DNA from: a candidate division WS6 bacterium GW2011_GWF2_39_15
GTDB lineage: Bacteria; Patescibacteriota; Dojkabacteria; SC72
Direction: 5' to 3'
Length of the DNA stretch: 64,000 nucleotides
Assembly: GCA_000993565.1 (NCBI GenBank)
Contig: LBWK01000001.1
Location: 198,409-262,408, forward strand
How positions within the stretch are numbered: the stretch's first letter is position 1; each line of letters starts with the position of its first letter. The notes beneath the pieces are model-generated. The model did no database searches. It saw nothing but the letters and a program-made list of their open reading frames with translations, and was not told the origin of the DNA. Positions 5,211 through 63,289 of the stretch are shown here, piece by piece. The translations under genes and the position numbers were made by a program.

Positions 5211-5552
5211 ATGTCAGAAGCCGCAAAAAGAAAATTTAGACAATCAATGCAGAGCGGGAACACCCGACCTACAAACATTGCCACAAGAATATTCATGCTA
5301 ACACTATTCATTTTCCTCGCTGTACAGTTGGTAATCAACGCTATCCTTAGTCCAATGGGAGTACAGCTGGAAGCATACAATGTTGAAAAGACTCGACTTC
5401 TCGAAGAAAACCGATCCCTGGAACAGACGCTTGCAAATATGGGATCCATTAAGGCCTTAAACCATCTTTCTGCCAAGAAGTTAAAGCTTGTACAATCAAA
5501 TACAAAACAGATTGTATATATAAGCGATAGTTCACTTAGAGCAGAAAAATGA
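5211..5552 (+). CDS. ftsL: FtsL-like cell division protein (single TM plus coiled coil)
   Basis: Position between rsmH and ftsI; one TM helix followed by a heptad-like segment; the ORF is open from TTG 5199, ATG at about 5211. Confidence 0.5.
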   Translation: MSEAAKRKFRQSMQSGNTRPTNIATRIFMLTLFIFLAVQLVINAILSPMGVQLEAYNVEKTRLLEENRSLEQTLANMGSIKALNHLSAKKLKLVQSNTKQIVYISDSSLRAEK

Positions 5553-17870: not shown

Positions 17871-19889
17871 ATGCTATTCAAACTTAGCGATACGGTAGAT
17901 CAACTCCCACTGGTTGGAGGTGTAAAAGCAAAACAGCTTGAAAAGCTTGGAATTAACACAATTAAAGATCTTCTTTTTCATATCCCATTCAGATATAAAG
18001 ACACTTCCAATATAATTTCAATTCCCCAGATAAAACTTGAACGTGAAGGGACGGTTCTTGCAACAATCAAAGCTATACAAAATATATATACACGATCACG
18101 AAAAGTCCTGACAAAGGCTATGATTGAAGATGAGATGTCAGAAATCGAAACAGTATGGTTCAACCAACCATACCTGACCAAATCACTTAAAGTCGGAGAT
18201 CGGTATCTTTTTGAAGGCAGGCTTAATCCCAAACAAACCCGCCCGCAGTTGGTAAGTCCAACATATGAAAAATACTACGATGGACTACTTTCTCAAAAAC
18301 ACGTAGGAAGGATTACACCCTTTTATCCTGAGACTGCAAACCTAACATCAAAGTGGCTCAGAAATCGAATAGACTATCTCTTTCAAAATACAGACCTGAC
18401 ATTAGAGGAGCCGCTTCCACAAAATATTTCTCAAGATTCGAAACTGATCCCTGTATCAGAAGCTATTAACCTAATACACAACCCCAAAAGTTTAGAAGAT
18501 ATTACTCAGGCACGTGCCAGGCTTGGGTTCGATGAGATGCTGGCACTAGCACTTCAGATTGAAAGCCAGGTCCAAGCTCAGGAGGGAAAAAAGGCCAATA
18601 TAATTGACATAGATTTTGATACTCTCTTCGAGTTTATAAGCTCACTACCTTATACCCTCACAGATGATCAAGTTCATGCGATTAAAGATATCCTACAGGA
18701 TCTATCAAAACCAAATCCTATGAGGAGGCTGCTTAATGGTGATGTAGGCAGCGGTAAAACAGTTGTCGCAGCCGCCGTAATGTATGGGATAAATAAAAGG
18801 GGATACCCATCAATCTTGATGGCTCCCACTTCAATCCTCGCCAGACAGCACTTCAAGACGATAACAGAACTCCTCTCCGGATTGGATATCGACATTCAGC
18901 TCTGTACAAGCCTAGAAAAGATAGAACAAAGAAAGAAACCGCAGATAATAATCGGCACGCATGCACTTCTATACCAGGCAGAACTTCCAGATAATATAGG
19001 GCTGGTAGTCGTGGACGAGCAGCACAGATTTGGTGTGAACCAGAGAAAAGAGCTTTTAGAAAGGGATACCAACTCCCTTATCCCACACTATTTAAGCATG
19101 ACAGCAACACCGATACCAAGAACTCTAACCAACATATTATTCGGAGATATGTCGGTCTCTTTTATCCACGAACTACCCAAAAATCGTATTCCTGTCAAAA
19201 CTTTCTATGTCCCGTATGAAAAAAGAGAATCCTGCTACAGCTGGTTAAAAGAAAGGATCATTAAGTCTGGATACAAAGAACAGGCCTTTATTATCTTCCC
19301 TCTGGTAGATGAATCGGAGCTGGTTGAAGCCAAATCTGCAAAAAAAGAGTTTGAAACTCTAACATCAACTGTACTTAAAGACATGAAAGTCGCTCTGCTT
19401 CATGGGCAGATGAAAGAGAAAGAAAAGGATGAGATCTTGAAAGACTTTAAAGCAGGAAAGTACTCGATACTAATAGCAACTCCAGTTGTTGAAGTAGGGA
19501 TAGATATACCCAATGCCACAATCATGGTAATCGAGAACTCTGAAAGATTTGGCTTGGCACAGCTCCATCAATTCAGGGGAAGAGTGGGGCGAAACGATAT
19601 GGAATCATACTGCTACGTTCTTGCCGGAGAGCAGGTTGAACAAGACTCGGAGACAATTCAAAGACTCCAGTACTTTAGTGAGCACAATTCCGGATTTGAT
19701 GTCGCAGAATATGACCTTCAAAAGCGAGGACCCGGAGAAGTCTTCGGAGTTAAACAGTCCGGAATCCCGCAATTCAAAATAGCATCTATAACCGATATCA
19801 AACTGCTTCTAAAGTGCAGAGAGGTCGCAAAAAAGCTTATTAACTCAGGATATAATACAGAGGAAATTAGTGATAAACTATTCAGATGA
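17871..19889 (+). CDS. recG: ATP-dependent DNA helicase RecG
   Basis: Wedge domain, Walker A GDVGSGKT, DEQH box (VVVDEQHRFG), helicase C motifs. Confidence 0.9.
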   Translation: MLFKLSDTVDQLPLVGGVKAKQLEKLGINTIKDLLFHIPFRYKDTSNIISIPQIKLEREGTVLATIKAIQNIYTRSRKVLTKAMIEDEMSEIETVWFNQPYLTKSLKVGDRYLFEGRLNPKQTRPQLVSPTYEKYYDGLLSQKHVGRITPFYPETANLTSKWLRNRIDYLFQNTDLTLEEPLPQNISQDSKLIPVSEAINLIHNPKSLEDITQARARLGFDEMLALALQIESQVQAQEGKKANIIDIDFDTLFEFISSLPYTLTDDQVHAIKDILQDLSKPNPMRRLLNGDVGSGKTVVAAAVMYGINKRGYPSILMAPTSILARQHFKTITELLSGLDIDIQLCTSLEKIEQRKKPQIIIGTHALLYQAELPDNIGLVVVDEQHRFGVNQRKELLERDTNSLIPHYLSMTATPIPRTLTNILFGDMSVSFIHELPKNRIPVKTFYVPYEKRESCYSWLKERIIKSGYKEQAFIIFPLVDESELVEAKSAKKEFETLTSTVLKDMKVALLHGQMKEKEKDEILKDFKAGKYSILIATPVVEVGIDIPNATIMVIENSERFGLAQLHQFRGRVGRNDMESYCYVLAGEQVEQDSETIQRLQYFSEHNSGFDVAEYDLQKRGPGEVFGVKQSGIPQFKIASITDIKLLLKCREVAKKLINSGYNTEEISDKLFR

Positions 19890-20342: not shown

Positions 20343-21398
20343 ATGGTAGAGATTAGAGAAGTTACTAATCAACAAGAATGGGATAATGTAGCCAAATCAG
20401 TTACACCCACTTCTGTTCTGCAATCCTGGCACTGGGGGGATTTTCAAGAATCATTGGGCAGAAAAGTCTGGAAATTAGGAATTTACGACAATGATATTCT
20501 GACTGGTGTAGCTCTGACTCAAAAAATTCCAACCCGTCTTAGAACACATTTATACGTCTCAAACGGTCCTGCTATATTGCGCCAGGACATGCTGAAATAC
20601 TTTCCTTCCTTTATAGATTATCTCAAAAAGCTTGGCACAGAGGAAAATGTTGAGTTTATCAGAATGGACCCGGTCTACGAAGACAGTCAAGAGCTGTACA
20701 ATGAGTTGAAGTCATTGAAACTGGTTCGGGCCAAAACATTTACTCAATCAGAGAACAAGTGGCTGCTCGATGTCACTCAGGATGAGGAGTCCATTCTTGC
20801 TAACATGGAAAAAAGCACCAGGTACGAAATAAGGAGATCAGCAAAAGAAGGTGTCGTAGTATACTCATCAACCGATTTAAAAGACTACGATAAGTTTGAA
20901 AAGCTCTTTTTAGAGACTGCAAAGCGCCAGAACTTTATAACTCACCCGCTTGAGTATTACAAAAAGCAATTTGAAATACTGACAAAGTACGATATGTACA
21001 AAATCTTCTGGGCGGAAAAGGATGGTCACATCTTAGCTGCAGCCCTGATTTCCTTCTTTGGAGACTCGGCTTCATATCTGCATGCAGCAAGTGAAAGCAA
21101 TAGAGAGGTAAATAAGCTGTTTGCCCCACCTGCCGTAGTATGGGCCGCCATAAGGGAGGCAAAGTTACGCGGAATGAAGTATTTCGACTTCTGGGGTATT
21201 GCACTTACTGACGATCCCAAACATCCATGGGCGGGATTTACCAGATTCAAAAAGGGCTTTGGAGGATTTCTATATCGAATAGTCCGAGCTCATGATATAC
21301 CACTCTCACCTAAATATCCGTTAATTGCCCTCCTGGATGCGACAAGGGATCATTGGGGACTGGCATATTCAAAGCTACTTAAGGTATTGAAAAAATAG
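20343..21398 (+). CDS. FemAB/FemX-family peptidoglycan branch aminoacyltransferase
   Basis: Size and N-terminus (WHWGDFQE...) fit FemX; the C-terminal block aligns to Weissella FemX (…IFWAEKDGHILAAALISFFGDSASYLHAAS…YFDFWGI). Confidence 0.75.
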   Translation: MVEIREVTNQQEWDNVAKSVTPTSVLQSWHWGDFQESLGRKVWKLGIYDNDILTGVALTQKIPTRLRTHLYVSNGPAILRQDMLKYFPSFIDYLKKLGTEENVEFIRMDPVYEDSQELYNELKSLKLVRAKTFTQSENKWLLDVTQDEESILANMEKSTRYEIRRSAKEGVVVYSSTDLKDYDKFEKLFLETAKRQNFITHPLEYYKKQFEILTKYDMYKIFWAEKDGHILAAALISFFGDSASYLHAASESNREVNKLFAPPAVVWAAIREAKLRGMKYFDFWGIALTDDPKHPWAGFTRFKKGFGGFLYRIVRAHDIPLSPKYPLIALLDATRDHWGLAYSKLLKVLKK

Positions 21399-21412: not shown

Positions 21413-21439
21413 TTGACAACATTTTCTCCTCCCTATAAT
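21413..21439 (+). promoter_or_regulatory. Consensus promoter TTGACA, 15 nt, TATAAT, ending 7 nt before the ATG of the giant gene (predicts a leaderless transcript)
   Basis: Read directly. Confidence 0.45.
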
Positions 21440-21446
21440 ATGTACA

Positions 21447-24400
21447 ATGATGGAGGATAATCTGCTCAAAAAGAAACAATTTAAGAGTGCTCTCATTAAA
21501 CTGTTCTTTGCACTACTAGTTCTTATACCCATCCTCACTTATTCGCTTTATACAGCGTATACAAATCCTAAACCGAGAATTGTAACAACACCCGAATCCT
21601 CTAATTATATGTTTGAAGCTCAAAATAGCGTATACAAAGCAAAATTGGGGCAGAAGGGCACTGGGATTCCAATCATCCAATTTCAAACAAACAAAGGGAA
21701 ATCAATTGAATTTGCATATGTATCCGAATCACAAAGCGGACAGATTCAGACTGAAACAAAAAATAGATCAATCCTCTTTAATAATGTAGAACAAATGATC
21801 GACCTTGAATATATAATGCTTGAAAACGGTGTCAAAGAAAATATTATTCTTAGAGAAAAGGTAGATAAAACCACTTTCTATTTCAAGACAAATACTCATG
21901 ATTTAGTTATAAAAAAACACTACACCGAAGCAGCACCATCCTTTTACGATGAGAATGGATCATATCTTTTTAACATTGAAAAAGGGTATGCAGTTGATGC
22001 CTTAGGTAAGAGAACTGAAAATGTACAGATAGATTTGGTAAAGGATCCTGACGGACAGCCATATATACGAGTGCGTATAGATCCAAAGTGGCTGAATAGT
22101 CCCTCAAGAAGATACCCAGTAAGGATAGATCCAACCTTGGTGCATGACACAACCTCGGAGTTCTCGGAAGGTCAATTCAATCGCATCAAAGATACTGGCT
22201 CCGGATCTTCACCTATACTCCAAACATACTACCAGCCACCGAACTCCGACCTTTCAACAGTAGGTCTCTGGCATTTTGACGAGCCTTCAGGGAATGTTCT
22301 TGATTCATCCGGATATAGTCAGACGGGTACTCCGACTGGGACAACTGTCGACACCAGCAGCATATTGGGAAACGCCAGAATATTCAACGGAACATCAGAC
22401 TATATAACAGTAAATGATACATCCGAACTTAGAGCCGTTGGAGCCATAACGATCGAAGTCTGGATTAAGTCAACAGGATCAAATGACTACTCGGGAATTG
22501 TCTATAAGCGTGTAGGCAATAATGGATATCAAATGGGTTTAAACACCAATGGAGGAGTCCGTGCGGATCTCTATAATGGCTCAACTTGGGCAACAGTAAC
22601 CAATTCCACAAATGTAGAGGATGGGCAGTGGCATCATGTAGCAACAACCTACGATGGAATAAGTGCCCTTATCTACGTAGACGGGAAACCTGGAAACCCA
22701 CTCCAGGCGACATCGTATGTGACATCAAGTGCCGCAAACCTGCTCATAGGAAACGACTCTGGAGCGGCTAACAGATTTTTTAACGGAGAAATAGATGAAG
22801 TAAGAATAAGTAATAGGGCACGATCAGCAGAGGAAATAAAACTAGATGCTCAAAAAAGGCCCTATTCTACATTCACATCCAATGTCCTAGATCTGGCTGA
22901 TGTTATAAGCTGGAACTCACTAAGCTGGAGTGAACTTGGAGTAAATACTGGAGGAGGAGAAACCCTAAAAGACTCCTCAAATGTAGTTGCTCATTGGAAG
23001 TTAAACGAAACCTCAGGAACAAGTGCAAATAATGATGCAGAAGGGACTAGTTGTGGCGGGACTCCAGGTAACTGTGATGGAACTCTAATAGGGGTTGACT
23101 CTACAACAAGTCAGGATAGTGACTTAGACTCAAGCTGGACTGCCAATAACCGCAGATGGGGAGAGGGGGCACTTCAACTTGATGGTGTAAATAGTTACGT
23201 TGAAGTAGCCGATAATAACGCGATCAGTTTTGGCAACGGAGTAACAGACACTCCATTTAGCATCTGTTCATGGATTAACCCTATCAGTGCGACCAGTTTT
23301 ATAATCGCCGCAAAACAAAGTGTAACAGCAGACATTCGCGAATTCACTTTTTCATTACGAGCTGAAGAAGATCTCTCGCTAATCCTTTTTGATGATAACG
23401 GGGCAAACCAGATAGAGAAAGTAAGCAATATAAAATTCGCTCAGGATGAAGGCCAGTGGGTTTACGTCTGTAGCACATATGACGGAAGCGGAAGCGTGAA
23501 TGGAATCAAACTTTATAGAAACGGAATTCAGCTTCAAACATTCAGTGATAATGCAGGCACGTATACAGCAATGAGCAATACCGCTCAGAAACTATTTTTA
23601 GGATGGAACGGTACCGGTGGAACAACATATGCAAAAGGCATGATGGATTCGACGTACATGTACCAACGAGAACTATCAGCATCAGAAATCCTGTCAAACT
23701 ACAATACGGGGAATATTAATATTCAAACAAGAGTAGGGACTGATAGCACACAAGATGACGGTTCATGGGAAGAATGGAAACCTAATAGTAGTGAAACGGC
23801 CATAGAATCAATGGACCTTTCCAGTAAATGGAGTGTTCCAAATACTAATGAAAACATACTTTTGAACGACTCGAACGAGGCGGACGTCGGAGACGGTGCC
23901 GATGGGGCACTAAGCCCGAGTGGCACATTTAACCTTAACACATCTACATCCGGGAGTAGAACATATGCTGATGGAATAGCTTATCAGATAGCTTCTAATC
24001 CGACCGGCAATTCAATAGTCACAGTTGATACACCCAACGGGATAGCTGCTGGCGACGAAATTCTCCTTATAAACCTAAGAGGATCTACAACTGACTTCCG
24101 TGATGCCGGCAATTACGAGTTTCTAGAAGTCCAAAGTGTCAACTCCGGCACAAAAACAATAACTACCACAAACCCTATACAGAAACCATACGGTGGAAAC
24201 ACCTTTTCAAACCAAAAGGTCGCTATACAAAGAGTTCCAAATTACACAAGTGTAACACTGGATTCAACAGACTCAATTACGTCATCTGCTTGGGATGCTT
24301 TTGCAACTACTCCTACCGGGTCAGCAGGATACCAAACAGGAATTGTTGCTTTTAGAGCGAATGGCACTGTGACAATAGGAACCGGAACAACCATTAGTAC

Positions 24401-27400
24401 CAACTATTTGGGATATCTGGGTGGTAATACTACAACAATAGGCGGTAAAGGTGGAGAGGCATATTGTGGAGATGGAGGAGCAGGTTCAAACACAGAGGGT
24501 GTCCCAGGAAGTGCAGGCGCAGCAGGTGGCGGTGGATACGGAGGAACAGGTGTTCTCAATCCTACAGGAAATGCAGGAGGGGCAGGTTCATGCGGTGGTG
24601 GTGGTGGTGGTGGACGAGGAGGAAATGCGGGAAGTGGAAGTACAACTCGCGGTGGTGCGGGTGGTGGTGGTGGATACAAAGATAATGCGGCAGGACAAAC
24701 TGGAGCTGGAGGAGGAGCAGGATATGGAAATCCTGGAACAGGTGGTGGTGGATATGGAGCGAGTGGGGGAACAGGTGGATTTGATGTCAGCGGAAATGGT
24801 GGTACAGATGGCGGTGGAGGAGGTGGTGGTGGTACTTATGGAGATTATCAACTTAATAGAATATATCTAGGGGCAGGGGGAGGCATGGGAGGAAGCAATG
24901 GAGGAACAGGCTCCGGGGTTGGAGGGAAGGGTGGAGGGATTATTTTTATTTCTGCAAACACTTTGACCAATAGCGGTTCGATAACCTCAAATGGACAAAA
25001 CGGATCAAATGGGTCTACAAGCTTTAAAGCTCCGGGTGGTGGTGGAGCAGGAGGAAGTATATTTATACGAGCAATGTCAGTTACTTTAGGAACCAATGGA
25101 GCTACCGCAGCTGGAGGATCTGGAGGAACACTATATGAAAGGGTGGCTGGTAACGGTGGGAAAGGGAGAATTAAACTGGTAGCACAAAGCCTTACAGGGA
25201 CATCCGATCCTCAAGCAACAATAAACCAAATTTCATCCTCTAATGTCAAACAGGAAGGATCTAGTTCAATAAGCATAAAGAGCGGACAATTGAACGTAGA
25301 TAGTTTTACAACCTCACTTTGGCATCTTGATGAGACAGGAGGGAATGGAGCATACTTAAAAGACTCAACAAACAACTCTAATCACCTTACTCCGACAGGT
25401 ACAGTCCCCGAAAAAGGGATCTCACAAAAGTCCAGGGATCTCAACGGGACAAGTGACTTCATGTCTATAAGTTCACCAACAGGATTACCATCAGGATCAT
25501 CTGCAAGAACCATTGAACTTTGGGTAAAACCTGACAATACAAACCCTGGCGGTGCTCTTGTACACTGGGGTGATGGAACAGGTGGAGGGCAGGAATTTGC
25601 TCTGCAATTAGGAACCATATCTGGCACCTGTTACCTTTTTTCTGATGGAATCAACGGAACAAACAATATAACAATCTCAGGGGCAGAAATCCCCGCAAAC
25701 GGCAGGTGGTCGCATATCGCTTTTACGAAGGACTTGGGAAGCAACTGGAAATACTATTTGAATGGCACCTTAACTAAAAGTGGATCATTTGCGGTAACTA
25801 TAAATACTTCAACTCCTAATATCCTTAACATTGGAGAAAGAACCGATGTCGCTTCAAATAACTTCCCGGGCTTAATGGACGAGATAAGAATCTCAAATAT
25901 TGAGAGAACCGCCAGGGAAGTTGCAGAAGATTACAGGGCAGGTAGAGATCATTATTTAAATTTAAATTTGAATAGTGCTAACCTGAACACTCAAAGCACA
26001 CTTCCATTCTATATTGCAGCTGATAAACCTGGAACATATCTTGAAAGCATTGTGGGGGAATCTGCCTATGCAAATAATCTAACAGACGGAAACACATTAG
26101 GTTTGTGGCACCTTGAAGAACAAAGTGGAGCGGGAGCTTTTCTAAAAGACAGTAGTGGCAATGAAAATAATGGGACACCGACATCTTTAACAATGGCTAC
26201 AGGGAAAATCGGAAAAGCAAGAAGCTTTGTCGCAGGAACAAATTACATTAATTTAGGAAGTCCATCAGCCTACGGCGGCCTTACCGCATTCACAATTGAG
26301 GCCTGGATCTACCCAACTTCTGTCTCAGGTCAACACAGGATATTTGACCGCGGCTCCTCAGGCAGTCCAAATGTCCTCCTTTTATACCAGGAAAGCGCCG
26401 CAATCAGGCTTCTCGTAAATAATACGGATTTAGTAACCACTTCAGACGTTTTAACAGTTAATCAGTGGTACCATGTAGTGGCAGTATACACCGGCTCTGG
26501 AGGAGAAAAGGCTATTTACGTAAATGGTGTGAAAGTCGCTACAGGGACATCGACCCAAAGTTCAGTAACAGCTGGAAGCCTGGCTACATGGATAGGATGT
26601 CCATCGTGGGGAACATGTTCTACATACGTTTTCAACGGTATTATTGACGAAGTCAGACTTAGTAATGTTGCACGCAGCTCAGAATCTATAAGACAAGCTT
26701 ATGAAATAAATCGCAGATCACATAATATCACAATAGATTTTGGTGCGGCATTGCACTTCAGTAATCTTATAACGAGTAGCAGCGATACCTCCTTTACCAT
26801 TGATGCCACATACTATGGACTTCAGAATAAAGGATCAAACCTCTACCTGGGAGATAAAATAATTGTTCAGGAAAATTACGACGGAACAGTTTATACGGCA
26901 CAAGGAACAGTGAGCTCAGTGAATACTTCCACAGGGGCCGTGCTTGTCTCAGGGTGGGAAAATGGCAGTACTTTTCCTCCAACCGCAGGTTTTTCTTCAA
27001 ATGCCTCAGTATTTAAATGGCAGAGAGAATACTGGCCGCTACAGAATGTATCTCAGGATTCACACATAGATACTACTTCTGTCTTTACATTAAGATTTAC
27101 AGACGGAAGCGAAGGAAGAAATGTCTGGATCGACGATCTCAAATCTAGCGGAGAATACCTAACAACACCAACAGGATCGGCAATAGCGTCCTCAGTCGAG
27201 AATAGGTACATACAATACAAAGCTCTTTTAATTTCGGGTGATTATAACACTTCACCCTCACTAAGCACCGTTGAATTAGACTGGGACTCAAACAGTCTGC
27301 CCGGAGTTCCAACTCTAGATACGCCAACCAATCTTTCTGTCGGAAATATTCTTAAACCAGCACTTAAAACAACTGCGACAGATGCAGATTTAGATTATTT

Positions 27401-29891
27401 AAGATATAAGATAGTCCTTTGTCAAAATGTGGATATGACAATCGGCTGCCAGACTTTTAATCAGACGCTTTCACAAACAGGATGGAGCGGACAAAATGCA
27501 GAAGGTAACACTGCGTATTCATCAGGCACTCAGGCGACATATACTCTGCAATCCGATCTCAAAGCCGGTGGAACCTACTACTGGAAATCTTATGCCATTG
27601 ACCCGGGAGGTAGGAATGATTGGGGATATTCGCAAACTTCTCCGTACCATTTTGGAATAAACTCGAAACCACGGTCTACAAATTCCAATGAAGTTCAATC
27701 ATTCATAGCTCGAAGGGAAAGCTCATTCCCAAGTCTTAGTACAGGATGGACAAGCATTACAGGCTCTGCCGAGAGCGGTACAACAGCCTCTTCTAACGGT
27801 TGGATTGCAGGCACCAACTTTACAGTAGGAGATCAATACCTTTTAATGGTGTGGGGGGAGCATCAGGCAGACAACGTAGGATCTCAGAGCGGAATCCGTG
27901 TTACCCACGGAGGAACACCTTTCTCAGAATCTGAAACTGTCGAACAATCAGATCAAACAGATTCGTCTCATAAAACACCATACTACTGGTTTACAGTCTG
28001 GACAGCGACAAACGAAGCAGTGGAAACGGAAGTTTATTGGAGCGGAACGAGTGGAAGCGAAGCCCGAGTTGAGGATGTGACACTTGTAGCTCTAAATGTA
28101 ACTGATCTCATAGACAATAACTATTTTAAATACAATATCTCCAACACAGGTGGAACTCTAAACACTAGCTATGCACAGAAAGCCCATTTATCTTTTTCAC
28201 CTTCAAATAATAATGATCTTTGGTGGATAATGGGATATTCAAAAGCTGACGTTGTTTCAACAGCAGGTTCCAAATATCAAGCACAGCTAAATATTGATGG
28301 TCAGAATCTTTCTCATCAGGTTATTAAAGGGGTAAATGCCTCAGATACTCCTCTTTATGGACTTGGTCATGTTGCTGAGTTAACAACAGACACTCATATT
28401 ATAGACCTGGAATTAAAAGAATCTTTGGCTGACCAAGAGTGGGACAGTGCTGGAGTCTTTGCACTCAATCTTTCATATTTTGATTCCTATCTAGGTACAA
28501 CGAAAACAGGAACAGGAACTTCGATGTCCACACCATCAAATTGGGTCGGGCAAACCAGTATAGATCCAATAAGCCAATATCAGGGTCGTTATATTATCGC
28601 TGGTGGAGGTGTCGTTGCAGATGCAGGAGGCAGAGTCATCGGCCGTATCCAAAATAGTGGATCAAATATAACCGATGATGCAGGAGGATGGAGCCATGAC
28701 AATGCGGATTATCAGCCGCTTACACTAGGAGATGTTCAAAATGCTTATACAATTGGGTTAAAATCTCTAACACTTGATACTCAAACAACACAGGTTGGGA
28801 CCTCATGGGTAGAGGACGCATGGATGGTAGGATTCTCGCTGGAGAAAAACGGAAACGGACCACAACTAAATCTTCCGGCAGATAATGCTACAAATCAAAG
28901 TGTTCGCACTCAGTTAAAACTCACAGCTATTGACCCAAATAACGATACATTAAAATACAAAATTGAACTCTGCCAAAATGAGGCTATGACACTCAGCTGT
29001 CAAACTTTCGACCAAACAGCAACGCAAACGGGTTGGAGTGGTCAGAATGCCGCAAGTTTCACCCGATATACATCGGGTACACAAGCTACTTACACCCTTC
29101 AAACTGATCTAGCTGTTAATACAGAGTATTTCTGGAGAGGATATGCAAAAGATCTTGACGGGACCAACACCTTTAGTAGTCCAAGCTCAATCTTTTCTTT
29201 TACAACAACAGTTTCGCCAAATGCTCCAACTTCAATTGAAATCGAGGGCACAGCTTCCCCTCAAGAAGTGACCGACACGACCCCGGAATTCAGTGCCATT
29301 CATACAGATACAAATAGTGACGCTGCTAACTATTATGAGGTGGAGGTAAATACACTGCCGACATTCGCCGGGACTATCAAATGGGATTCAGGTAAAACGG
29401 CAATGACATCAACGCCAAGTACTAATAGATCCCCTCTAATTACATATGCGGGATCATCACTATCAGTAGACGGAAGTACATACTATCTTAGGATAAGATT
29501 CTGGGATACAAACGAAGCCGTAAGCCCATGGTCGGCAACTTCTTCCTTTAGAATGGACGCTCTCGAAATCCCGCTTGCTTGTCGCATAATCGACAGCGAT
29601 TCTACAGATACAACGATCCAAATACTATGGACGGATACAAACACAGTAGAAGATGGATATAAAATACAACGAAGCGTAAATGGAGGAGCTTTCGGTGACC
29701 TAATCTCTAAACCAGCAGATTCAACAAGCCATTCAGACTCAATTTCAGCGGGAAACACATATAGATACAGGATAGCTGCAACTCTCTCACCGTTTACAGG
29801 ATCATGGTGTACAACCTCAACCGCAGATGTTCATCAGGGAAGTATGCAGATAAACGGTAACTTCCAGATAGGAGGGATAACCTTCAAATAA
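21447..29891 (+). CDS. Giant (2814 aa) surface protein: N-terminal signal anchor, four LamG/ConA-like modules, a Gly-rich beta-helix-like tract, two Cys-pair FN3-like repeats, C-terminal FN3-like domains
   Basis: Four repeats of the pattern LWHFDE/LWHLDE...G...NG... ending in DEVRISN (Laminin_G_3-type); Gly-rich 985-1250 aa; duplicated 120-aa module with YYW/YFW and CQN...C; uninterrupted 8.4 kb ORF. Confidence 0.85.
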   Translation: MMEDNLLKKKQFKSALIKLFFALLVLIPILTYSLYTAYTNPKPRIVTTPESSNYMFEAQNSVYKAKLGQKGTGIPIIQFQTNKGKSIEFAYVSESQSGQIQTETKNRSILFNNVEQMIDLEYIMLENGVKENIILREKVDKTTFYFKTNTHDLVIKKHYTEAAPSFYDENGSYLFNIEKGYAVDALGKRTENVQIDLVKDPDGQPYIRVRIDPKWLNSPSRRYPVRIDPTLVHDTTSEFSEGQFNRIKDTGSGSSPILQTYYQPPNSDLSTVGLWHFDEPSGNVLDSSGYSQTGTPTGTTVDTSSILGNARIFNGTSDYITVNDTSELRAVGAITIEVWIKSTGSNDYSGIVYKRVGNNGYQMGLNTNGGVRADLYNGSTWATVTNSTNVEDGQWHHVATTYDGISALIYVDGKPGNPLQATSYVTSSAANLLIGNDSGAANRFFNGEIDEVRISNRARSAEEIKLDAQKRPYSTFTSNVLDLADVISWNSLSWSELGVNTGGGETLKDSSNVVAHWKLNETSGTSANNDAEGTSCGGTPGNCDGTLIGVDSTTSQDSDLDSSWTANNRRWGEGALQLDGVNSYVEVADNNAISFGNGVTDTPFSICSWINPISATSFIIAAKQSVTADIREFTFSLRAEEDLSLILFDDNGANQIEKVSNIKFAQDEGQWVYVCSTYDGSGSVNGIKLYRNGIQLQTFSDNAGTYTAMSNTAQKLFLGWNGTGGTTYAKGMMDSTYMYQRELSASEILSNYNTGNINIQTRVGTDSTQDDGSWEEWKPNSSETAIESMDLSSKWSVPNTNENILLNDSNEADVGDGADGALSPSGTFNLNTSTSGSRTYADGIAYQIASNPTGNSIVTVDTPNGIAAGDEILLINLRGSTTDFRDAGNYEFLEVQSVNSGTKTITTTNPIQKPYGGNTFSNQKVAIQRVPNYTSVTLDSTDSITSSAWDAFATTPTGSAGYQTGIVAFRANGTVTIGTGTTISTNYLGYLGGNTTTIGGKGGEAYCGDGGAGSNTEGVPGSAGAAGGGGYGGTGVLNPTGNAGGAGSCGGGGGGGRGGNAGSGSTTRGGAGGGGGYKDNAAGQTGAGGGAGYGNPGTGGGGYGASGGTGGFDVSGNGGTDGGGGGGGGTYGDYQLNRIYLGAGGGMGGSNGGTGSGVGGKGGGIIFISANTLTNSGSITSNGQNGSNGSTSFKAPGGGGAGGSIFIRAMSVTLGTNGATAAGGSGGTLYERVAGNGGKGRIKLVAQSLTGTSDPQATINQISSSNVKQEGSSSISIKSGQLNVDSFTTSLWHLDETGGNGAYLKDSTNNSNHLTPTGTVPEKGISQKSRDLNGTSDFMSISSPTGLPSGSSARTIELWVKPDNTNPGGALVHWGDGTGGGQEFALQLGTISGTCYLFSDGINGTNNITISGAEIPANGRWSHIAFTKDLGSNWKYYLNGTLTKSGSFAVTINTSTPNILNIGERTDVASNNFPGLMDEIRISNIERTAREVAEDYRAGRDHYLNLNLNSANLNTQSTLPFYIAADKPGTYLESIVGESAYANNLTDGNTLGLWHLEEQSGAGAFLKDSSGNENNGTPTSLTMATGKIGKARSFVAGTNYINLGSPSAYGGLTAFTIEAWIYPTSVSGQHRIFDRGSSGSPNVLLLYQESAAIRLLVNNTDLVTTSDVLTVNQWYHVVAVYTGSGGEKAIYVNGVKVATGTSTQSSVTAGSLATWIGCPSWGTCSTYVFNGIIDEVRLSNVARSSESIRQAYEINRRSHNITIDFGAALHFSNLITSSSDTSFTIDATYYGLQNKGSNLYLGDKIIVQENYDGTVYTAQGTVSSVNTSTGAVLVSGWENGSTFPPTAGFSSNASVFKWQREYWPLQNVSQDSHIDTTSVFTLRFTDGSEGRNVWIDDLKSSGEYLTTPTGSAIASSVENRYIQYKALLISGDYNTSPSLSTVELDWDSNSLPGVPTLDTPTNLSVGNILKPALKTTATDADLDYLRYKIVLCQNVDMTIGCQTFNQTLSQTGWSGQNAEGNTAYSSGTQATYTLQSDLKAGGTYYWKSYAIDPGGRNDWGYSQTSPYHFGINSKPRSTNSNEVQSFIARRESSFPSLSTGWTSITGSAESGTTASSNGWIAGTNFTVGDQYLLMVWGEHQADNVGSQSGIRVTHGGTPFSESETVEQSDQTDSSHKTPYYWFTVWTATNEAVETEVYWSGTSGSEARVEDVTLVALNVTDLIDNNYFKYNISNTGGTLNTSYAQKAHLSFSPSNNNDLWWIMGYSKADVVSTAGSKYQAQLNIDGQNLSHQVIKGVNASDTPLYGLGHVAELTTDTHIIDLELKESLADQEWDSAGVFALNLSYFDSYLGTTKTGTGTSMSTPSNWVGQTSIDPISQYQGRYIIAGGGVVADAGGRVIGRIQNSGSNITDDAGGWSHDNADYQPLTLGDVQNAYTIGLKSLTLDTQTTQVGTSWVEDAWMVGFSLEKNGNGPQLNLPADNATNQSVRTQLKLTAIDPNNDTLKYKIELCQNEAMTLSCQTFDQTATQTGWSGQNAASFTRYTSGTQATYTLQTDLAVNTEYFWRGYAKDLDGTNTFSSPSSIFSFTTTVSPNAPTSIEIEGTASPQEVTDTTPEFSAIHTDTNSDAANYYEVEVNTLPTFAGTIKWDSGKTAMTSTPSTNRSPLITYAGSSLSVDGSTYYLRIRFWDTNEAVSPWSATSSFRMDALEIPLACRIIDSDSTDTTIQILWTDTNTVEDGYKIQRSVNGGAFGDLISKPADSTSHSDSISAGNTYRYRIAATLSPFTGSWCTTSTADVHQGSMQINGNFQIGGITFK
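24400..25200 (+). repeat. Low-complexity GGN-codon tract encoding the Gly-rich segment
   Basis: Runs of ggtggtggtgga / ggaggagga; this is what generates the spurious Pro-, Arg/Trp- and Ser/Thr-rich shadow ORFs on other frames. Confidence 0.6.
27300..27660 (+). repeat. Internal duplicated module, copy 1 (FN3-like with conserved Cys pair)
   Basis: About 50% aa identity to copy 2: DYLRYKIVLCQNVDMTIGCQTF...TGWSGQNA...SGTQATYTLQSDL...YYWKSYAIDPGG. Confidence 0.5.
28850..29210 (+). repeat. Internal duplicated module, copy 2
   Basis: DTLKYKIELCQNEAMTLSCQTF...TGWSGQNA...SGTQATYTLQTDL...YFWRGYAKDLDG. Confidence 0.5.
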
Positions 29892-31859: not shown

Positions 31860-33635
31860 ATGGCTAATTCAAACGTAAACTTAGAAAACATCCCAGAAAT
31901 AGAAAAGATGCGGCATACAGCCTCTCACATACTTGCTCAAGCTGTACTTAAGTACTACCCAGATGCAAAACTTGGTATTGGACCTGCAATTGATGACGGT
32001 TTCTACTACGATTTCCAGTTCAATGAACCAATTACAGACGAAGACCTCCAGCAGATTGAAAAAGAGATGAAGAGAATCATTGATGCAAACCTTCCCCTTA
32101 CACAATCCTTCATGAAAAGAAAGCAGGCTGAAAAATTTTTTAAGGAAAAAGAACAGAGATTTAAGATTGAACTCCTTAGAGACATTCCGGATAAAGAATT
32201 AAGCTTCTTTACAACCGGTGAGAATCAATTTGTAGATATGTGCCGAGGTCCCCATGTAGAATCAACTGGTAAGGTGGGAGCGGTCAAACTGATGAGCTTG
32301 GCAGGAGCATACTGGAGAGGCAATGAAAAGCAGCCCATGCTAACCCGAATCTATGGACTGGCGTTTAAGACTCCTAAAGAGCTTCGCAAACATATTACGA
32401 TGCTAGAAGAAGCAGAGAAGCGAGACCACAGAGTAGTAGGTAAGAATCTTGGCCTTTTCGTATTCTCCGATCTTGTAGGAAAAGGACTCCCGCTTTGGAC
32501 TGCAAAAGGTGCGACCGTTAGGAGAGAATTGGAGAGATTCATTGTTGATGAGGAACTCAAAAGAGGGTATCAGCATGTATATACTCCGGATATAGCAAAG
32601 ATAGATCTGTATAAAACCTCAGGTCACTACCCATATTATAAAGACTCAATGTATGCACCTATAAAAATTGATGAGGAAGAGTTTATGCTTCGCCCTATGA
32701 CATGTCCTCATCACTTTGAGCTCTACAGATCACAAAAACGAAGCTATAGAGAATTACCTATGAGAATTGCGGAGCTTGCTAAGTTATACCGATATGAAAA
32801 AAGCGGTGAGCTTACCGGGCTCATGCGGGTAAGGAGTTTCTGCCTTGCTGATGCACATATAGTAGCCATGCCAAGTCAGGCCGAGGAAGAGATAAACCAA
32901 GCCCTAGACCTTATAGAATACGCTTCTCAGGTATTTGGTTTAAAAGCTAATGAAGATTACAGGTATCGATTATCTCTGGGAGATAGAAACAACTCTGAGA
33001 AATACTATAAAGATGATGCTGCGTGGGATTTTGCAGAAAATGTATTAAGAGAGGTCCTCAAGAAGCGTGATGTAGAGAGCTATGAAGCTCCGGGAGAGGC
33101 CGCATTTTACGGCCCGAAGATTGATATACAGATGAAGAATACTGTAGGGAAAGAAGATACTGCATTTACAGTACAGTATGACTTTGTAATGCCAAAACGA
33201 TTCGATCTTAAATATGATGACGAAAAAGGTGAGGAGAAAGAGCCTATTGTTATCCACAGATCTTCAATCGGAGCAATAGAAAGAATTATGGCCCTCCTTA
33301 TAGAGAAGTATGCAGGGGCATTTCCTTTATGGTTGGCACCTGTACAGGCAAAGATCCTTCCAATTTCAGATTCTCACAACAAGTACGCTCAGGAGATAAC
33401 TCAAAGGCTTCAGGAGACTGGATTTAGGGTAGTTCTTGATAACAGAAATGAGACCCTGCAGTATAAGATCAGAGACGGAGAAGTAAATAAAGTCCCTTAT
33501 CTGGCAATAGTCGGGGACAAGGAGATAGGAACTCAGACAGTTTCTGTTAGGTCACGTGGAAGCAAAGAGATAGGTCTTATGAAAATAGATGAGTTCATAC
33601 AATCGTTGCAAAAAGAAATTGCTAACAAATCTTAA
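31860..33635 (+). CDS. thrS: Threonyl-tRNA synthetase (no N-terminal TGS domain)
   Basis: Editing-domain motif RHTASHILAQAV; class II core; anticodon-binding C-terminus. Confidence 0.9.
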   Translation: MANSNVNLENIPEIEKMRHTASHILAQAVLKYYPDAKLGIGPAIDDGFYYDFQFNEPITDEDLQQIEKEMKRIIDANLPLTQSFMKRKQAEKFFKEKEQRFKIELLRDIPDKELSFFTTGENQFVDMCRGPHVESTGKVGAVKLMSLAGAYWRGNEKQPMLTRIYGLAFKTPKELRKHITMLEEAEKRDHRVVGKNLGLFVFSDLVGKGLPLWTAKGATVRRELERFIVDEELKRGYQHVYTPDIAKIDLYKTSGHYPYYKDSMYAPIKIDEEEFMLRPMTCPHHFELYRSQKRSYRELPMRIAELAKLYRYEKSGELTGLMRVRSFCLADAHIVAMPSQAEEEINQALDLIEYASQVFGLKANEDYRYRLSLGDRNNSEKYYKDDAAWDFAENVLREVLKKRDVESYEAPGEAAFYGPKIDIQMKNTVGKEDTAFTVQYDFVMPKRFDLKYDDEKGEEKEPIVIHRSSIGAIERIMALLIEKYAGAFPLWLAPVQAKILPISDSHNKYAQEITQRLQETGFRVVLDNRNETLQYKIRDGEVNKVPYLAIVGDKEIGTQTVSVRSRGSKEIGLMKIDEFIQSLQKEIANKS

Positions 33636-33661: not shown

Positions 33662-34231
33662 ATGGAATTCAAGAGAGATTTTAGAAGCAGTTACGATAGG
33701 AACAGATTTCAGGATAAAAAGAAATTCTTCGGGCCAAGAAAAAATGAATACATTAGAGTACCGCAGGTCATGCTAATAGATGAAAGCGGTAACAACCTTG
33801 GTGTAACAAAAACAGACGAAGCGATCAGGTTAGCACAGGCAAAAGGTTTAGATCTGGTTGAGGTTGGAGCAACAGCTACTCCTCCCGTGTGCAAAATAAT
33901 AGACTTTGCCAAATATATGTACGAACAGAATAAGAAGCAACGAAAGAGCAAAAATAAAAGCAAACCGATGAAAGAGTTTCAGTTCAGTCCTGTCATCGAA
34001 CAAGGTGATATTGACACAAGAGTGAGACGATCAAAGGAATTTCTGGGTAAAGGACACATGGTTAGACTTACAATGGTTCGTAAGGGCCGTCAGACCCATG
34101 AACAGGCGGTACAAGTTTTTAATGGTATATTGACTAATTTCGAAGGCTATAGTACTATTGAGCCCGATAAAAAAGTCGAAGGTAAAACAATATCTATAAC
34201 TTTCAAACCTAATGGCAAGACAAAGGACTAG
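33662..34231 (+). CDS. infC: Translation initiation factor IF-3
   Basis: YIRVPQVMLIDESGNNLGV...; conserved thrS-infC-rpmI-rplT synteny. Confidence 0.85.
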   Translation: MEFKRDFRSSYDRNRFQDKKKFFGPRKNEYIRVPQVMLIDESGNNLGVTKTDEAIRLAQAKGLDLVEVGATATPPVCKIIDFAKYMYEQNKKQRKSKNKSKPMKEFQFSPVIEQGDIDTRVRRSKEFLGKGHMVRLTMVRKGRQTHEQAVQVFNGILTNFEGYSTIEPDKKVEGKTISITFKPNGKTKD

Positions 34232-39181: not shown

Positions 39182-42166
39182 CTAGTACTTTATCGTAATA
39201 GAACTACTTTCATAATTATTACCACCTTTAATGGCCACTGCTTTCACAGAGTAGTAGGTATTTACACCTGGCAACGTTCCATCATTCCATGATACTGACC
39301 ATCCGCCTGCGACAGAATTATCCTCCAATGTTGTAGAAAAACCTCCACCGTTCTTTGTAATTACAAATTGGACCTTCTCTACATCATCATCAGATAAAGC
39401 TGCGGTTATATTAATTGGCTGCACAATAAAAGATGCTCCATTAGTAGGAGAGCTTATACTTACGGTTATGCCGTTTGAAATAATAGAAACATTAATCTGA
39501 GACTCGCCTGTTTTACCCTCATCATCATGAACAACTGCTTTTATGACATGTGTTCCTACTGATGTACTGTTTGGAATATTATAACCATACTCATATGGAG
39601 CCGCGTTTATAGTTTGTATCTTATCTCCATCAAAATATAGATCAACACTCGTTACATTACCTTTTGCTCTCGGATCGACCTTAATAGTTACCGTACTATT
39701 CTTTGCAATAGTAGCACCTGAGGCAGGTGTTAAGATATCGACAATTGGAGCATCACCCGGCCCAAGCGGCAGTGGACAATCTGCAGACTCAGGCTCTTTA
39801 AACAAGGCACTCGACCCTTTTATAGACGACAGATACTTCTCATAGTATGCCTGTTGGAGTTTATTCTCCAGTTGCTTTTCTATTACATAAACCGTAGTTG
39901 TGAGACCATACTTCTTAGCCGATTCCAAGTTCGTGGGTTTCTTTTTATTTACTTTGCATACTTCAACTGCAGTTCTTTTATCCGGCTTTGGAGCTTTCCC
40001 TGATATATATATTGATGGAACCTTTTTACAATTACTATCTTTGCTAGCCATGTTACCTGTATCAGCACATACTGACGTTGCAATAATACCTGATGGTCTA
40101 GAGAACCCTACGGGCTTATATTTTGATGCAACTCTATTCATAAACGAACTGGCAATTGGAAGAGGAACTGTAGTACTCCATGCTCCAGGAGTCTCAATAT
40201 TATTATTGTTTCCAGACCAAACAGCAGTTAGAAGACTTTTTGAATACATTATAGAGACAAGATCCTTTGGACCGTTAGTAGTACCAGTTTTTCCACAATA
40301 TGCTCTACGGCCATTGTAGTAGTAATATTTATCATTCGGCTGATCCCTAAAACCTCCCAGATCACAAAGAATCCAGTTAAGGGCGTAAATTTCTCTCTCA
40401 TCCCAAACCCGTTTCCCTTTATTCTCTTTCTTCTCTAAAAGTACATTTCCTTTAGAGTCTTCAACCTTGAGAATTGAACGAATATCTTTTTTAATACCTT
40501 CATTAGCAAACACCGTAAAAGCTCCTGCATGTTCAACAAGAGACATCTCAGCCGTGCCAAGAGTCAAACTCAAGCCATACTGATCACGATGGGTGAGAGT
40601 AGTTATACCAAGTGTTTCTGCTGTTTTAATAAAGTTATCGATACCGACAAGCTGCATAGTGTAAACAGCAGGGATATTTCTCGACTGAAGCAAACCCTGA
40701 CGTGCCGTAAGGAGGCCGGAATACTTATTATCCCAGTTCTCCAGCTTGTAATTTCCGAAATTCAACCCTTTAACATCAGGCACTAATAGCCAAGGTCCGT
40801 ATCCCTGATTAAATGCGGTTAGGTAAGTATATGGCTTAACGGAAGAACCCATTTGGCGGGGACTGATTGTCACATTTACATTACCGTCGATTCTCTTATC
40901 ATTTGTTTTATTATAATCAACCGATCCTACCATAGCGATAATATCTCCGCTTCTAGGATCAATTGAAACTAATGCCCCGTTATTTACATTCCATTTCTTT
41001 CCCAAATTCCTTATACCGTTCCTGACTTCTTCCTCTGCAATCTTTTGAATAGAGAGATCCAAAGTGGTAGTAACTTTCAATCCTCCCTGCTCAACCCTTT
41101 CTAGTCCGAACTCATCTGCGAGAAGCTGTTTTACATAGAAAACAAAATGGGGAGCATTAATATTGATCTCTTTTGATGTATACACTAAGGGCTCGTTTCG
41201 GGCTTTATCAATCTCTTCTTCTGTAACACCAGTCAGATCCTTATGTTTAAGCATTTGATCCAGAACATAACTCTGTCTGAGTTTAGCTTCCTCTGGGTTT
41301 GTACCAAAAAGAGGAGAGGAGTATCCGGGACGTTGTATCAATCCGGCTATTAGAGCACTCTCAGCAAGGCTTAGGTCCTTAACATCTTTCCCGAAATATG
41401 CGTTTGCCGCAGCCTGGAAACCATAGTTCACTCCACCAAGTGGAACCTCGTTCATATACATCTGTAAAATATCATCCTTTGAGAATGCCTGCTCCATCTG
41501 CATAGTGATGAGTATCTCCTTAATCTTCCTGCTGATCGTTTTGTCGTAGGCTTCAACCCCTAAAATATCGTAAAGAAGAGTTGTTTTAACTAACTGCTGG
41601 GAGATAGTACTTCCGCTGGCCATTACTCTATTTAAAACGTAGGTATTATATGCAGAACGAAGGATAGCGATTATATCGATACCTTTATGTTGATAAAAAT
41701 CGACATCTTCGGCAGCCAATAGGGCCCATTTAGTGTATTCAGGGATCTCTTCAAGCTTCACAAACTCCCTGTTCTGATCTCCATGGATTGTATACAACAG
41801 CTTACCATTCCTATCAAGAATCTGGGTACTTAATGCTGAACTTCTGTCTACTAGTTTGTTTGGATCAGGAAGTGAGGCCTCAAGCTGCTTTAGATATATA
41901 CCAGCACCAATTATCAGAAAAAGACCTACAAAGAAACATATCCCAATAAATATATATGTAGCCTTAAGAAGTTTCTTCTTGAATGCACTGCTTCCTTTAC
42001 CTTTTTTATTTGCTGCAATTCTTTGACTTGGCGTCACCCTGCTTCCGTACCTCTTAAGATTACGGACGCTTGATGCATATGCCTTACTGCCGCTTACGCG
42101 TCTATTATATCCCTGGAAATTAGGTTTTACCGGTTTTCGATCTGTTAGACCTACTCGATATTTCAT
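39182..42166 (-). CDS. Class A bifunctional penicillin-binding protein (GT51 glycosyltransferase plus transpeptidase) with C-terminal Ig-like extension and a basic cytoplasmic tail
   Basis: GT51 motifs (ASGSTISQQLVKT, RKIKE), transpeptidase SxxK/SxN/KTG, about 250 aa beta-rich C-terminal extension. Confidence 0.85.
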   Translation of the reverse strand: MKYRVGLTDRKPVKPNFQGYNRRVSGSKAYASSVRNLKRYGSRVTPSQRIAANKKGKGSSAFKKKLLKATYIFIGICFFVGLFLIIGAGIYLKQLEASLPDPNKLVDRSSALSTQILDRNGKLLYTIHGDQNREFVKLEEIPEYTKWALLAAEDVDFYQHKGIDIIAILRSAYNTYVLNRVMASGSTISQQLVKTTLLYDILGVEAYDKTISRKIKEILITMQMEQAFSKDDILQMYMNEVPLGGVNYGFQAAANAYFGKDVKDLSLAESALIAGLIQRPGYSSPLFGTNPEEAKLRQSYVLDQMLKHKDLTGVTEEEIDKARNEPLVYTSKEININAPHFVFYVKQLLADEFGLERVEQGGLKVTTTLDLSIQKIAEEEVRNGIRNLGKKWNVNNGALVSIDPRSGDIIAMVGSVDYNKTNDKRIDGNVNVTISPRQMGSSVKPYTYLTAFNQGYGPWLLVPDVKGLNFGNYKLENWDNKYSGLLTARQGLLQSRNIPAVYTMQLVGIDNFIKTAETLGITTLTHRDQYGLSLTLGTAEMSLVEHAGAFTVFANEGIKKDIRSILKVEDSKGNVLLEKKENKGKRVWDEREIYALNWILCDLGGFRDQPNDKYYYYNGRRAYCGKTGTTNGPKDLVSIMYSKSLLTAVWSGNNNNIETPGAWSTTVPLPIASSFMNRVASKYKPVGFSRPSGIIATSVCADTGNMASKDSNCKKVPSIYISGKAPKPDKRTAVEVCKVNKKKPTNLESAKKYGLTTTVYVIEKQLENKLQQAYYEKYLSSIKGSSALFKEPESADCPLPLGPGDAPIVDILTPASGATIAKNSTVTIKVDPRAKGNVTSVDLYFDGDKIQTINAAPYEYGYNIPNSTSVGTHVIKAVVHDDEGKTGESQINVSIISNGITVSISSPTNGASFIVQPINITAALSDDDVEKVQFVITKNGGGFSTTLEDNSVAGGWSVSWNDGTLPGVNTYYSVKAVAIKGGNNYESSSITIKY

Positions 42167-56606: not shown

Positions 56607-56710
56607 AAAAACAAATGCTTAAATTAGGCAGTATATATTACATTAATTAATAACAGGGAATAGGGGAGATGTCAATTGAAAAAGACTTATAACATACTGC
56701 ATTTGTAACA

Positions 56711-60002: not shown

Positions 60003-60062
60003 CTCTCTTTAATCTAGCAGGAAAGAAATGCTAATGCAAGATATCAATTCCAATTTGCTTTC

Positions 60063-61829: not shown

Positions 61830-61902
61830 TCTAAAGCAGTTTAAGTTAATACTTAATTATATAACTAACACACTGCATATTCAATCCTATAGTCCTATCT
61901 AT

Positions 61903-62292: not shown

Positions 62293-62309
62293 TTAAACAA
62301 TATTCAAAA

Positions 62310-63257: not shown

Positions 63258-63289
63258 GTTTCTACAGTTATATACATAAAATTAGCAGA

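Follow-up and report, generated by a model that had tools for sequence, protein, structure and literature searches.

A LamG-containing giant protein of a WS6 (Dojkabacteria) bacterium: domain map, family scaffold and a possible role as a glycan-binding surface fibre

What does a bacterium with an 869-kb genome do with a gene that takes up ~1% of it and encodes one protein of 2814 residues? The gene lies in the window analysed here, i.e., a stretch of 64,000 nucleotides of candidate division WS6 bacterium GW2011_GWF2_39_15 (Dojkabacteria; contig LBWK01000001.1, positions 198,409 to 262,408 of the forward strand). Patescibacteria, to which this organism belongs, account for much of bacterial diversity; those in culture live attached to other cells, and the way in which a host is recognized and held is little understood beyond type IV pili. 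Here, we report a domain map of the encoded protein (the giant protein hereafter), and, going by its sequence, we lean modestly toward reading it as a membrane-anchored cell-surface fibre, a multivalent glycan binder and adhesin by which the cell would hold on to a host cell or a polymeric substrate. The literature already discusses lectin-rich proteins on the surface of ultra-small bacteria, the family is annotated and uncharacterised, and the gene presumably became public with the deposition of the genome; new here are the map of the domains, the folds assigned to the N domain and to a glycine-rich cassette, the family scaffold and the C-terminal tail. The map turns a "hypothetical protein" into testable pieces, i.e., a supersandwich, four LamG modules, an AgmC-N-like cassette, two domains named X and M, and the tail; it does not make it a new kind of system. 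We found no literature on this protein or its family.

The open reading frame has exactly the coordinates, the ATG start and the plus strand that an initial annotation, made from the sequence alone, had given it (coordinates of all features are collected in Table 1). At the base composition of the window a stop codon is expected every ~15 codons, and the probability of 2814 codons without a stop is ~1e-82. The gene takes up 13.2% of the window (13% in the initial annotation), and the protein is made of Gly (12%), Ser (11%), Thr (11%) and Asn (7%) to a large part, with 15 cysteines that occur mainly as local pairs. On the whole, the initial description of a modular surface protein was right; it missed ~800 residues, those of the N, X, and M domains, as well as the conserved tail at the C-terminus, and it counted its module motifs four times where three are found.

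The four LamG-like modules are well founded. The Pfam family Laminin_G_3 (PF13385), of the concanavalin A-like lectin/glucanase superfamily, has a gathering score of 27.6 bits, and four separate matches in the giant protein exceed it, with a total of 321 bits. The motifs said to open and close each module are present as LWH[FL][DE]E and DE[VI]R[IL]SN in modules 1, 3, and 4; in module 2, they are degenerate (AHWKLNE and YQRELSASEI).

At the N-terminus, the signal anchor proposed earlier is also seen, as one hydrophobic segment after the basic stub KKKQFK, with no other segment of the protein above the hydropathy threshold. By eye there is no AxA-type cleavage site after this segment, only a conserved P-x-x-P, an arrangement that the family members share, and because of this the segment is probably retained as an anchor. 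By the predicted topology, the short N-terminus is intracellular and ~2,775 residues are extracellular. The anchor is followed by the N domain, which defines the family and is predicted to fold as a galactose-mutarotase-like beta-supersandwich. Sequence-profile search found no match for it in the PDB, and the same searches with the X, Cys-pair and cassette domains gave nothing significant or weak FN3/tail-fibre matches; weak matches to Pfam DUF7948 were obtained for 6 of 15 N-domain members. Residues 236-272 were of low confidence when modelled in isolation and probably belong with the next LamG module.

Between LamG modules 2 and 3, where a glycine-rich, beta-helix-like segment had been described, such a Gly-rich segment is present (48 and 42 glycines per 100 residues across residues 1001-1200), and the rung sequence IIFISANTLTNSGSITSNG begins at residue 1165. 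The segment belongs to a larger unit, the cassette, whose two halves travel together as one piece of ~450-480 residues in 41 of 41 full-length copies, in giants and also in proteins of 400-840 residues attributed to Acidobacteria, Planctomycetes, Myxococcales, and Patescibacteria. The structure model of the cassette (residues 805-1285) has a predicted local distance difference test score (pLDDT) of 85.7 and a predicted template-modelling score (pTM) of 0.89; its first half is beta-rich, ~135 Gly-rich residues are modelled confidently but without regular helix or strand, and the final ~100 residues form regular strands, including the rungs of the initial annotation. At the level of the fold, the cassette is of the parallel beta-helix (beta-solenoid) type of adhesins and tailspikes: its Foldseek and profile matches are tailspikes and phage capsule depolymerases (4ru4, 4y9v, 7vul, 9k4a, and 7w1c; fold-level only, template-modelling (TM) score ~0.15, 10-20% identity), among them a weak profile match to the depolymerase of Klebsiella phage P560 (7vul, E 0.013). 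In NCBIfam, 23 of 24 cassette copies match NF047640, gliding_AgmC_N (best E 2e-29); the query cassette does so with 68.9 bits over model positions 237-404 only, far below the equivalog cut-off of 275. As the copies match this family well below its cut-off, the cassette is, by sequence, a relative of the AgmC N-terminal domain, i.e., a homologous domain and not an equivalog. A Cystobacter protein named AgmC (P0199) is among the cassette homologues; the match to AgmC, the Myxococcus protein of adventurous gliding motility, is partial, and the rest of the giant protein is unrelated to it. Pfam Gly_rich_2 (PF21722) was considered for the Gly-rich tract and rejected, with no match in the query or in the 24 cassette copies and no similarity of the tract to the Gly_rich_2 regions of P0001, P0002, and P0006; several close homologues carry Gly_rich_2 instead of the cassette. 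As a separate observation, the cassette is fused to a prepilin-type N-terminal methylation domain (Pfam N_methyl) in pilin-like proteins of other bacteria (P0159, P0170, P0182, P0185, and P0195).

The depolymerase matches, by structure and by profile, bring up the alternative that the giant protein is a surface enzyme that degrades polysaccharide, in which the cassette would be the depolymerase and the LamG modules and the supersandwich, a fold typical of polysaccharide lyases and glycoside hydrolases, would be carbohydrate-binding accessories, feeding a cell with few biosynthetic pathways. We consider this quite improbable: besides the similarities being confined to the fold, over its Gly-rich half, the alignment of 24 cassette sequences conserves almost nothing but Gly and shows no conserved pair of acidic residues, Pfam and NCBIfam reveal no glycoside hydrolase or lyase catalytic family, and the cassette is missing from many family members.

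After the last LamG module comes the X domain, the most conserved domain of the family (mean column identity 57%), for which there is no match in PDB or Pfam. A relation of X to the cassette barrel, both having a "GDxI" motif, was rejected (hhalign probability 0.6%). The C-terminal part, described before as two copies of a Cys-pair FN3-like module plus further FN3-like domains, does contain the two copies, 63% identical in their cores and separated by the 400-residue M domain, and one Ig-like (immunoglobulin-like) domain is firmly assigned (Ig_Rha78A_N); the assignments of the Cys-pair modules and of the last domain to FN3 are weak or sub-threshold. For the Cys-pair module, these consist of weak, consistent profile matches to FN3 domains of titin, DCC, and gp130 (E 1e-3 to 1) and sub-threshold matches to Pfam Pur_ac_phosph_N, Ig_Rha78A_N, Big_5, and fn3; the homologues hold 128 copies of this module, with the Cys pair kept in 87%. 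The last FN3-like domain is also the terminal domain in most homologues. The M domain has no Pfam match and occurs in nine of the 311 proteins fetched, i.e., in eight family members (six among the 120 best homologues) and in P0311, a stand-alone secreted M-domain protein of 441 residues (locus L003, 8252-9577; 47% identity). The genes on the P0311 contig (cyclopropane-fatty-acid synthases, DUF1365, MarR, and ParE) are unlike those of a Patescibacteria genome, and this suggests that the M domain moves between lineages. An internal triplication of M was tried and found not significant (best P 0.0014, probability 17%).

Table 1. Features of the giant gene and its product in the 64,000-nucleotide window (aa, amino acid residues; kaa, thousand residues)
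Feature	Residues	Window position	Strand	Remarks
Promoter-like element		21413..21441	+	TTGACA then TATAAT (21434-21439); consensus scan, 10/12 matches; consensus match only
Whole gene	2814 aa plus stop codon	21447..29891	+	ATG to stop; collinear end to end with 2.8-kaa homologues P0001-P0003
Signal anchor (predicted)	~12-38	21480..21560	+	Basic stub KKKQFK before; sole segment with Kyte-Doolittle 19-residue hydropathy >1.6
N domain	38-235	21558..22151	+	Family-defining, all-beta; predicted galactose-mutarotase-like beta-supersandwich
LamG module 1	272-468	22260..22850	+	Laminin_G_3 aa 314-465, 118 bits, E 4.7e-34; LWHFDE aa 274, DEVRISN aa 450
LamG module 2	~508-752	22968..23702	+	Divergent, Cys-pair insertion C536/C543; Laminin_G_3 aa 579-748, 68 bits, E 1.5e-18
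Cassette, first half	805-1005	23859..24461	+	Beta-barrel/beta-rich, starts GDGADGAL; model pLDDT >90
Cassette, second half	1006-1285	24462..25301	+	Gly-rich tract with beta-helix rungs at its end; located between LamG2 and LamG3
LamG module 3	1288-1497	25308..25937	+	Laminin_G_3 aa 1334-1493, 89 bits, E 3.7e-25; LWHLDE aa 1291, DEIRISN aa 1478
LamG module 4	1550-1752	26094..26702	+	Laminin_G_3 aa 1597-1748, 101 bits, E 7.3e-29; Pentaxin E 4e-7; LWHLEE aa 1553, DEVRLSN aa 1734
X domain	1753-1955	26703..27311	+	Family's most conserved domain; in 119/120 best homologues, always after last LamG
Cys-pair module 1	1955-2070	27309..27656	+	C1992/C2001; weakly FN3/Ig-like; internal repeat with Cys-pair module 2
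M domain	2070-2470	27654..28856	+	Variable insert between the two Cys-pair modules
Cys-pair module 2	2472-2586	28860..29204	+	C2509/C2518; internal repeat with Cys-pair module 1
Ig-like domain	2595-2706	29229..29564	+	Pfam Ig_Rha78A_N 49 bits, cut-off 27.4
Last FN3-like domain	2707-2797	29565..29837	+	C2712/C2788, ends WCTT; fn3 (PF00041) aa 2717-2779, 19.6 bits, below cut-off 25
Conserved tail	2798-2814	29838..29888	+	GSMQINGNFQIGGITFK; 17 residues, three (hydrophobic-x-hydrophobic-x-G)-like pentads; runs to C-terminus

The protein ends in a short conserved tail. In most of the complete family members (among P0001-P0120 and P0213-P0310), about three pentads of the form hydrophobic-x-hydrophobic-x-G follow right after the final FN3-like domain ("WCTT") and run to the end of the protein, e.g., GSFQLNGLKLNGIKLD and GTFQFGGLDIKGVILQ, and the query tail GSMQINGNFQIGGITFK shows the family pattern in a shifted register. 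Of the 178 members with at least 1500 residues, 88 have all six hydrophobic positions (6/6) in perfect register at the very C-terminus, compared with 0 of 3,560 internal control positions. The tail differs from what is known of sortase substrates and other C-terminal sorting signals: there is no LPxTG anywhere in the giant protein, and the tail has no membrane helix (the protein has no second hydrophobic segment), no basic tail and no match to an NCBIfam sorting signal. We found no description of a pentad tail of this kind; in the family it could be a new sorting or assembly signal.

How widely these parts are shared was examined with a full-length search, which gave 201 proteins at E<=1e-10; please note that all taxonomic statements here rest on the minority of matches that carry names. 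The best 120 of the 201 matches are 1.6-3.9 kaa long and all contain LamG, and even the best is only ~50% identical; the nearest members, P0001-P0003, have 43-51% identity to the query. Mapping the query segments on these 120 shows a fixed scaffold, i.e., the anchor with the ~200-residue N domain, four to six LamG modules, the ~200-residue X domain, and then Cys-pair/Ig/FN3-like modules. Variable are the number of LamG modules, the M insert, and the cassette, which is found in a minority and at differing positions. The query shows the traits by which we define the family: anchor plus N domain, X after the last LamG followed by the Cys-pair/Ig/FN3 array, and a pentad tail. Its syntenic orthologue P0002 is collinear with it at residues 9-557 and 1267-2814 (47-49% identity) and rearranged in between (~560-1266); where the query has the cassette between LamG2 and LamG3, the orthologue has Pfam Gly_rich_2 at a different place. 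Family giants, labelled "LamG domain-containing protein" or "hypothetical protein" in GenBank, share the architecture and the syntenic position of the query, which differs from them in having four LamG modules, an M insert common only to its nearest relatives, and a single gene where a relative has two in tandem.

The initial annotation had called the gene the strongest candidate for a lineage-specific interaction system. The family is too widespread for the term lineage-specific: those named among the best 120 of the 201 matches are Dojkabacteria, Microgenomates, Gottesmanbacteria, Amesbacteria, or "Patescibacteria group", and a profile of the N domain (A1, with query residues 38-272 as its first sequence), searched against 1.84 billion cluster representatives at 50% identity, found at least 4,741 representatives at E<=1e-10 and 9,152 at E<=1e-3. 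Nearly all of the best 150 N-domain matches begin no more than ~190 residues from the N-terminus. When genomes, one per species, were scanned with the single query sequence, the matches were mostly to LamG alone and came from many bacterial and archaeal phyla; those that included the N domain came from Patescibacteria (L081, Dojkabacteria UBA2022; L004; L005) and from an "uncultured bacterium" (L006), and neither the N nor the X domain had a named archaeal match in this one scan. The share of the genome given to the gene, and a family of thousands in which lectin-like modules are shuffled on a fixed scaffold, make the giant protein a reasonable candidate for a specificity-determining contact molecule. 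It was further observed that relatives often have two or three giant surface-protein genes in tandem (L001 5805-21911; L002 253-17384; L084 2-14898; L085 3-11101; L086 1-16751) and that, in more distant lineages, the giants are followed by a ~240-residue protein without Pfam match, a TPR protein of 650-700 residues, and a LysM-Peptidase_M23 gene on the opposite strand. In the window only one giant is present, and it has none of these three genes next to it.

On the chromosome, the gene order is tyrosyl-tRNA synthetase, RelA/SpoT, RecG, SpoU, FemX, giant gene, an RsmD-type methyltransferase, two small genes of no assigned function, threonyl-tRNA synthetase (ThrRS), and initiation factor IF3. 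The neighbouring proteins at 17871-19889, 20343-21398, 31860-33635, and 33662-34231 are exact GenBank entries (RecG KKR06181.1, FemX KKR06183.1, ThrRS KKR06188.1, and IF3 KKR06189.1); the exact sequence of the giant protein was not found in the protein collection that contains them. Assembly GCA_964621555.1 has the identical gene order with two giants in tandem, and the Dojkabacteria assembly GCA_023229785.1 retains part of the order around the giant. The gene has no integrase, repeats, or tRNA at its flanks and belongs to the chromosome rather than to a mobile element. This bears on the idea that it derives from a mobile element or phage, as a tail fibre or receptor-binding protein, or that it is an artefact of assembly or a pseudogene. 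Such an origin might be suspected from the tailspike-like cassette, and Patescibacteria phages have been reported with concanavalin A-like genes. We regard it as very improbable, given housekeeping genes on both sides, a position that is syntenic in other genomes, the N-terminal membrane anchor, an intact reading frame collinear with its homologues up to the conserved C-terminal tail, and the lack of relatives of the X domain in IMG/VR and of the cassette in GenBank phages.

The conserved position beside FemX, a peptidoglycan enzyme, and the two penicillin-binding proteins in the window bear on another alternative, i.e., that the giant protein is a structural envelope component, a block of the surface layer or fibrous coat that ultra-small cells display, in which N, X, and the tail would serve self-assembly or wall attachment and the ligands of the lectin-like modules would be wall polymers of the cell itself. 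It is in keeping with this that N, X, and the tail are strongly conserved while the other modules vary, that the genes of more distant relatives cluster with those of LysM-Peptidase_M23 and TPR proteins, and that the membrane-proximal supersandwich fold is also that of YidC P1. Against these stand the absence of any SLH, LysM, or other known wall-binding domain in the giant protein and the shuffling of module number and insert among close relatives, which is more typical of partner-specific binding than of a lattice. On balance we hold a structural role to be unlikely, though less so than an enzymatic one. As to the penicillin-binding proteins themselves, one is of class A (993 residues; 39182-42166, minus strand) with two additional C-terminal Big_7 Ig-like domains, and the other is of class B (596 residues; 5549-7339, plus strand); counting also FemX beside the giant gene, cell-wall functions are well represented in the window.

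Returning to the glycan-binding fibre, we propose it because every recognisable module is elsewhere of a carbohydrate-binding type or an accessory of carbohydrate enzymes. The part predicted to lie outside the cell is a string of 13 all-beta modules, i.e., the N supersandwich, two LamG, the cassette, two more LamG, X, and an FN3/Ig array interrupted by M, and then the 17-residue tail. In such a fibre, the supersandwich would lie against the membrane or wall, with the remaining modules extending outward from the envelope; the LamG modules and the beta-helix would bind polysaccharide on another cell or substrate in a multivalent manner; anchoring and assembly would fall to the parts that do not vary (N, X, and tail), and the shuffled ones (LamG number, cassette position, and M insert) would set specificity. 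An adhesin of this kind fits two earlier reports: lectin-like (concanavalin A-like) proteins of Patescibacteria have been presumed to be attachment factors, without experimental support (PMC12911398), and predicted surface adhesins are essential in a cultivated Saccharibacterium (PMC11665869).

Several points weigh against the fibre adhesin. LamG, supersandwich and beta-helix folds are also found in enzymes and in purely structural proteins, and X, M, and the tail, ~620 residues together, could be given neither a fold nor a function. The anchor was judged to stay uncleaved by inspection by eye only. The layout, moreover, is the reverse of that of typical fibrillar adhesins, with the stalk-type FN3/Ig modules far from the anchor and the lectin-like modules near to it. 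This inverted layout would be a better fit if the C-terminal tail were the wall-proximal end or an assembly interface, and, together with the conservation of the tail, it is compatible with a structural or assembly role, or with a protein tethered at both ends. A bolder proposal follows the same line. The N domain, the X domain, and the pentad tail, for which as a set we found no description, might form a surface-assembly system specific to Patescibacteria, with the tail as a new sorting, wall-anchoring, or donor-strand signal and the giants as the fibres or surface layer that cryo-electron microscopy shows on ultra-small cells, tethered at both ends or polymerised head to tail. We offer it as a speculative and rather doubtful extension.

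Comparison with known systems places the giant protein near several of them in its proposed way of working. Parallel beta-helix fibrous adhesins and tailspikes (HMW1, FHA, HxuA, EtpA, Awp adhesins, and tapirins; LKA1 gp49 and AP22 gp54) differ from it in that the giant protein is without a two-partner-secretion (TPS) motif, an outer-membrane partner, or an autotransporter barrel, and its helix is short, with the ~135-residue Gly-rich stretch lacking regular secondary structure in the model. For TPS and autotransporters, Pfam and NCBIfam gave no match to a TPS domain with TpsB or to a C-terminal beta-barrel translocator, and the C-terminus is instead an FN3-like domain and the 17-residue tail. 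Gram-positive fibrillar or "periscope" adhesins (SasG, Aap, and others) combine lectin-like modules with repeated Ig/FN3-type stalk modules. Compared with these, the giant protein is anchored by an N-terminal membrane segment and not by a C-terminal LPxTG, its stalk-type modules are distal to the anchor, and the module families differ. The giant protein thus resembles both groups in how it is proposed to work, yet with no TPS domain or barrel and no LPxTG it belongs to neither. SPEARE-type proteins of Nanohaloarchaeota (DPANN episymbionts) are giant LamG-containing surface proteins of an ultra-small, host-dependent organism; they differ from the giant protein, in which Pfam detected no protease or restriction-endonuclease domain.

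Some minor features of the locus should be mentioned. The promoter-like element ends ~8 nucleotides from the ATG at 21447 (spacer CTCCTCCC), and inspection of the upstream sequence shows no Shine-Dalgarno sequence before this ATG; the mRNA may lack a leader, or translation may begin at the second ATG (21450) instead. Within the gene, at 24000-26000 of the window, the G+C content rises up to 0.46 and the GC skew to +0.18, compared with ~0.39 for G+C elsewhere in the window, and this is due to the GGN-rich Gly tract located there, i.e., to amino acid composition and not to foreign origin. The tract includes a (GGT)6.7 repeat at 24594-24613. Phase variation and repeats of the type used by diversity-generating retroelements (DGRs) were considered and rejected, only this repeat and the Gly-codon repeats being present: the window has no direct or inverted repeats of at least 40 nucleotides besides the Gly-codon repeats, and no reverse transcriptase was found among the window's open reading frames scanned, a scan that covered part of them. 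Within this scope, neither the template/variable repeat pair nor the nearby reverse transcriptase of a DGR target was found.

The window also carries a type IV pilus gene cluster (54118-63985, minus strand). It includes two large secreted proteins or proteins of no assigned function, both without Pfam match, at 56711-59284 (857 residues, with a signal peptide) and 60063-61829 (588 residues), a response regulator (61903-62292), a pilin-like membrane protein (62310-63257), a prepilin-like protein (63290-63985) whose N-terminal part reads ...GVSLIEVLITMVIIG, and PilM (55575-56606; Pfam E 8e-55).

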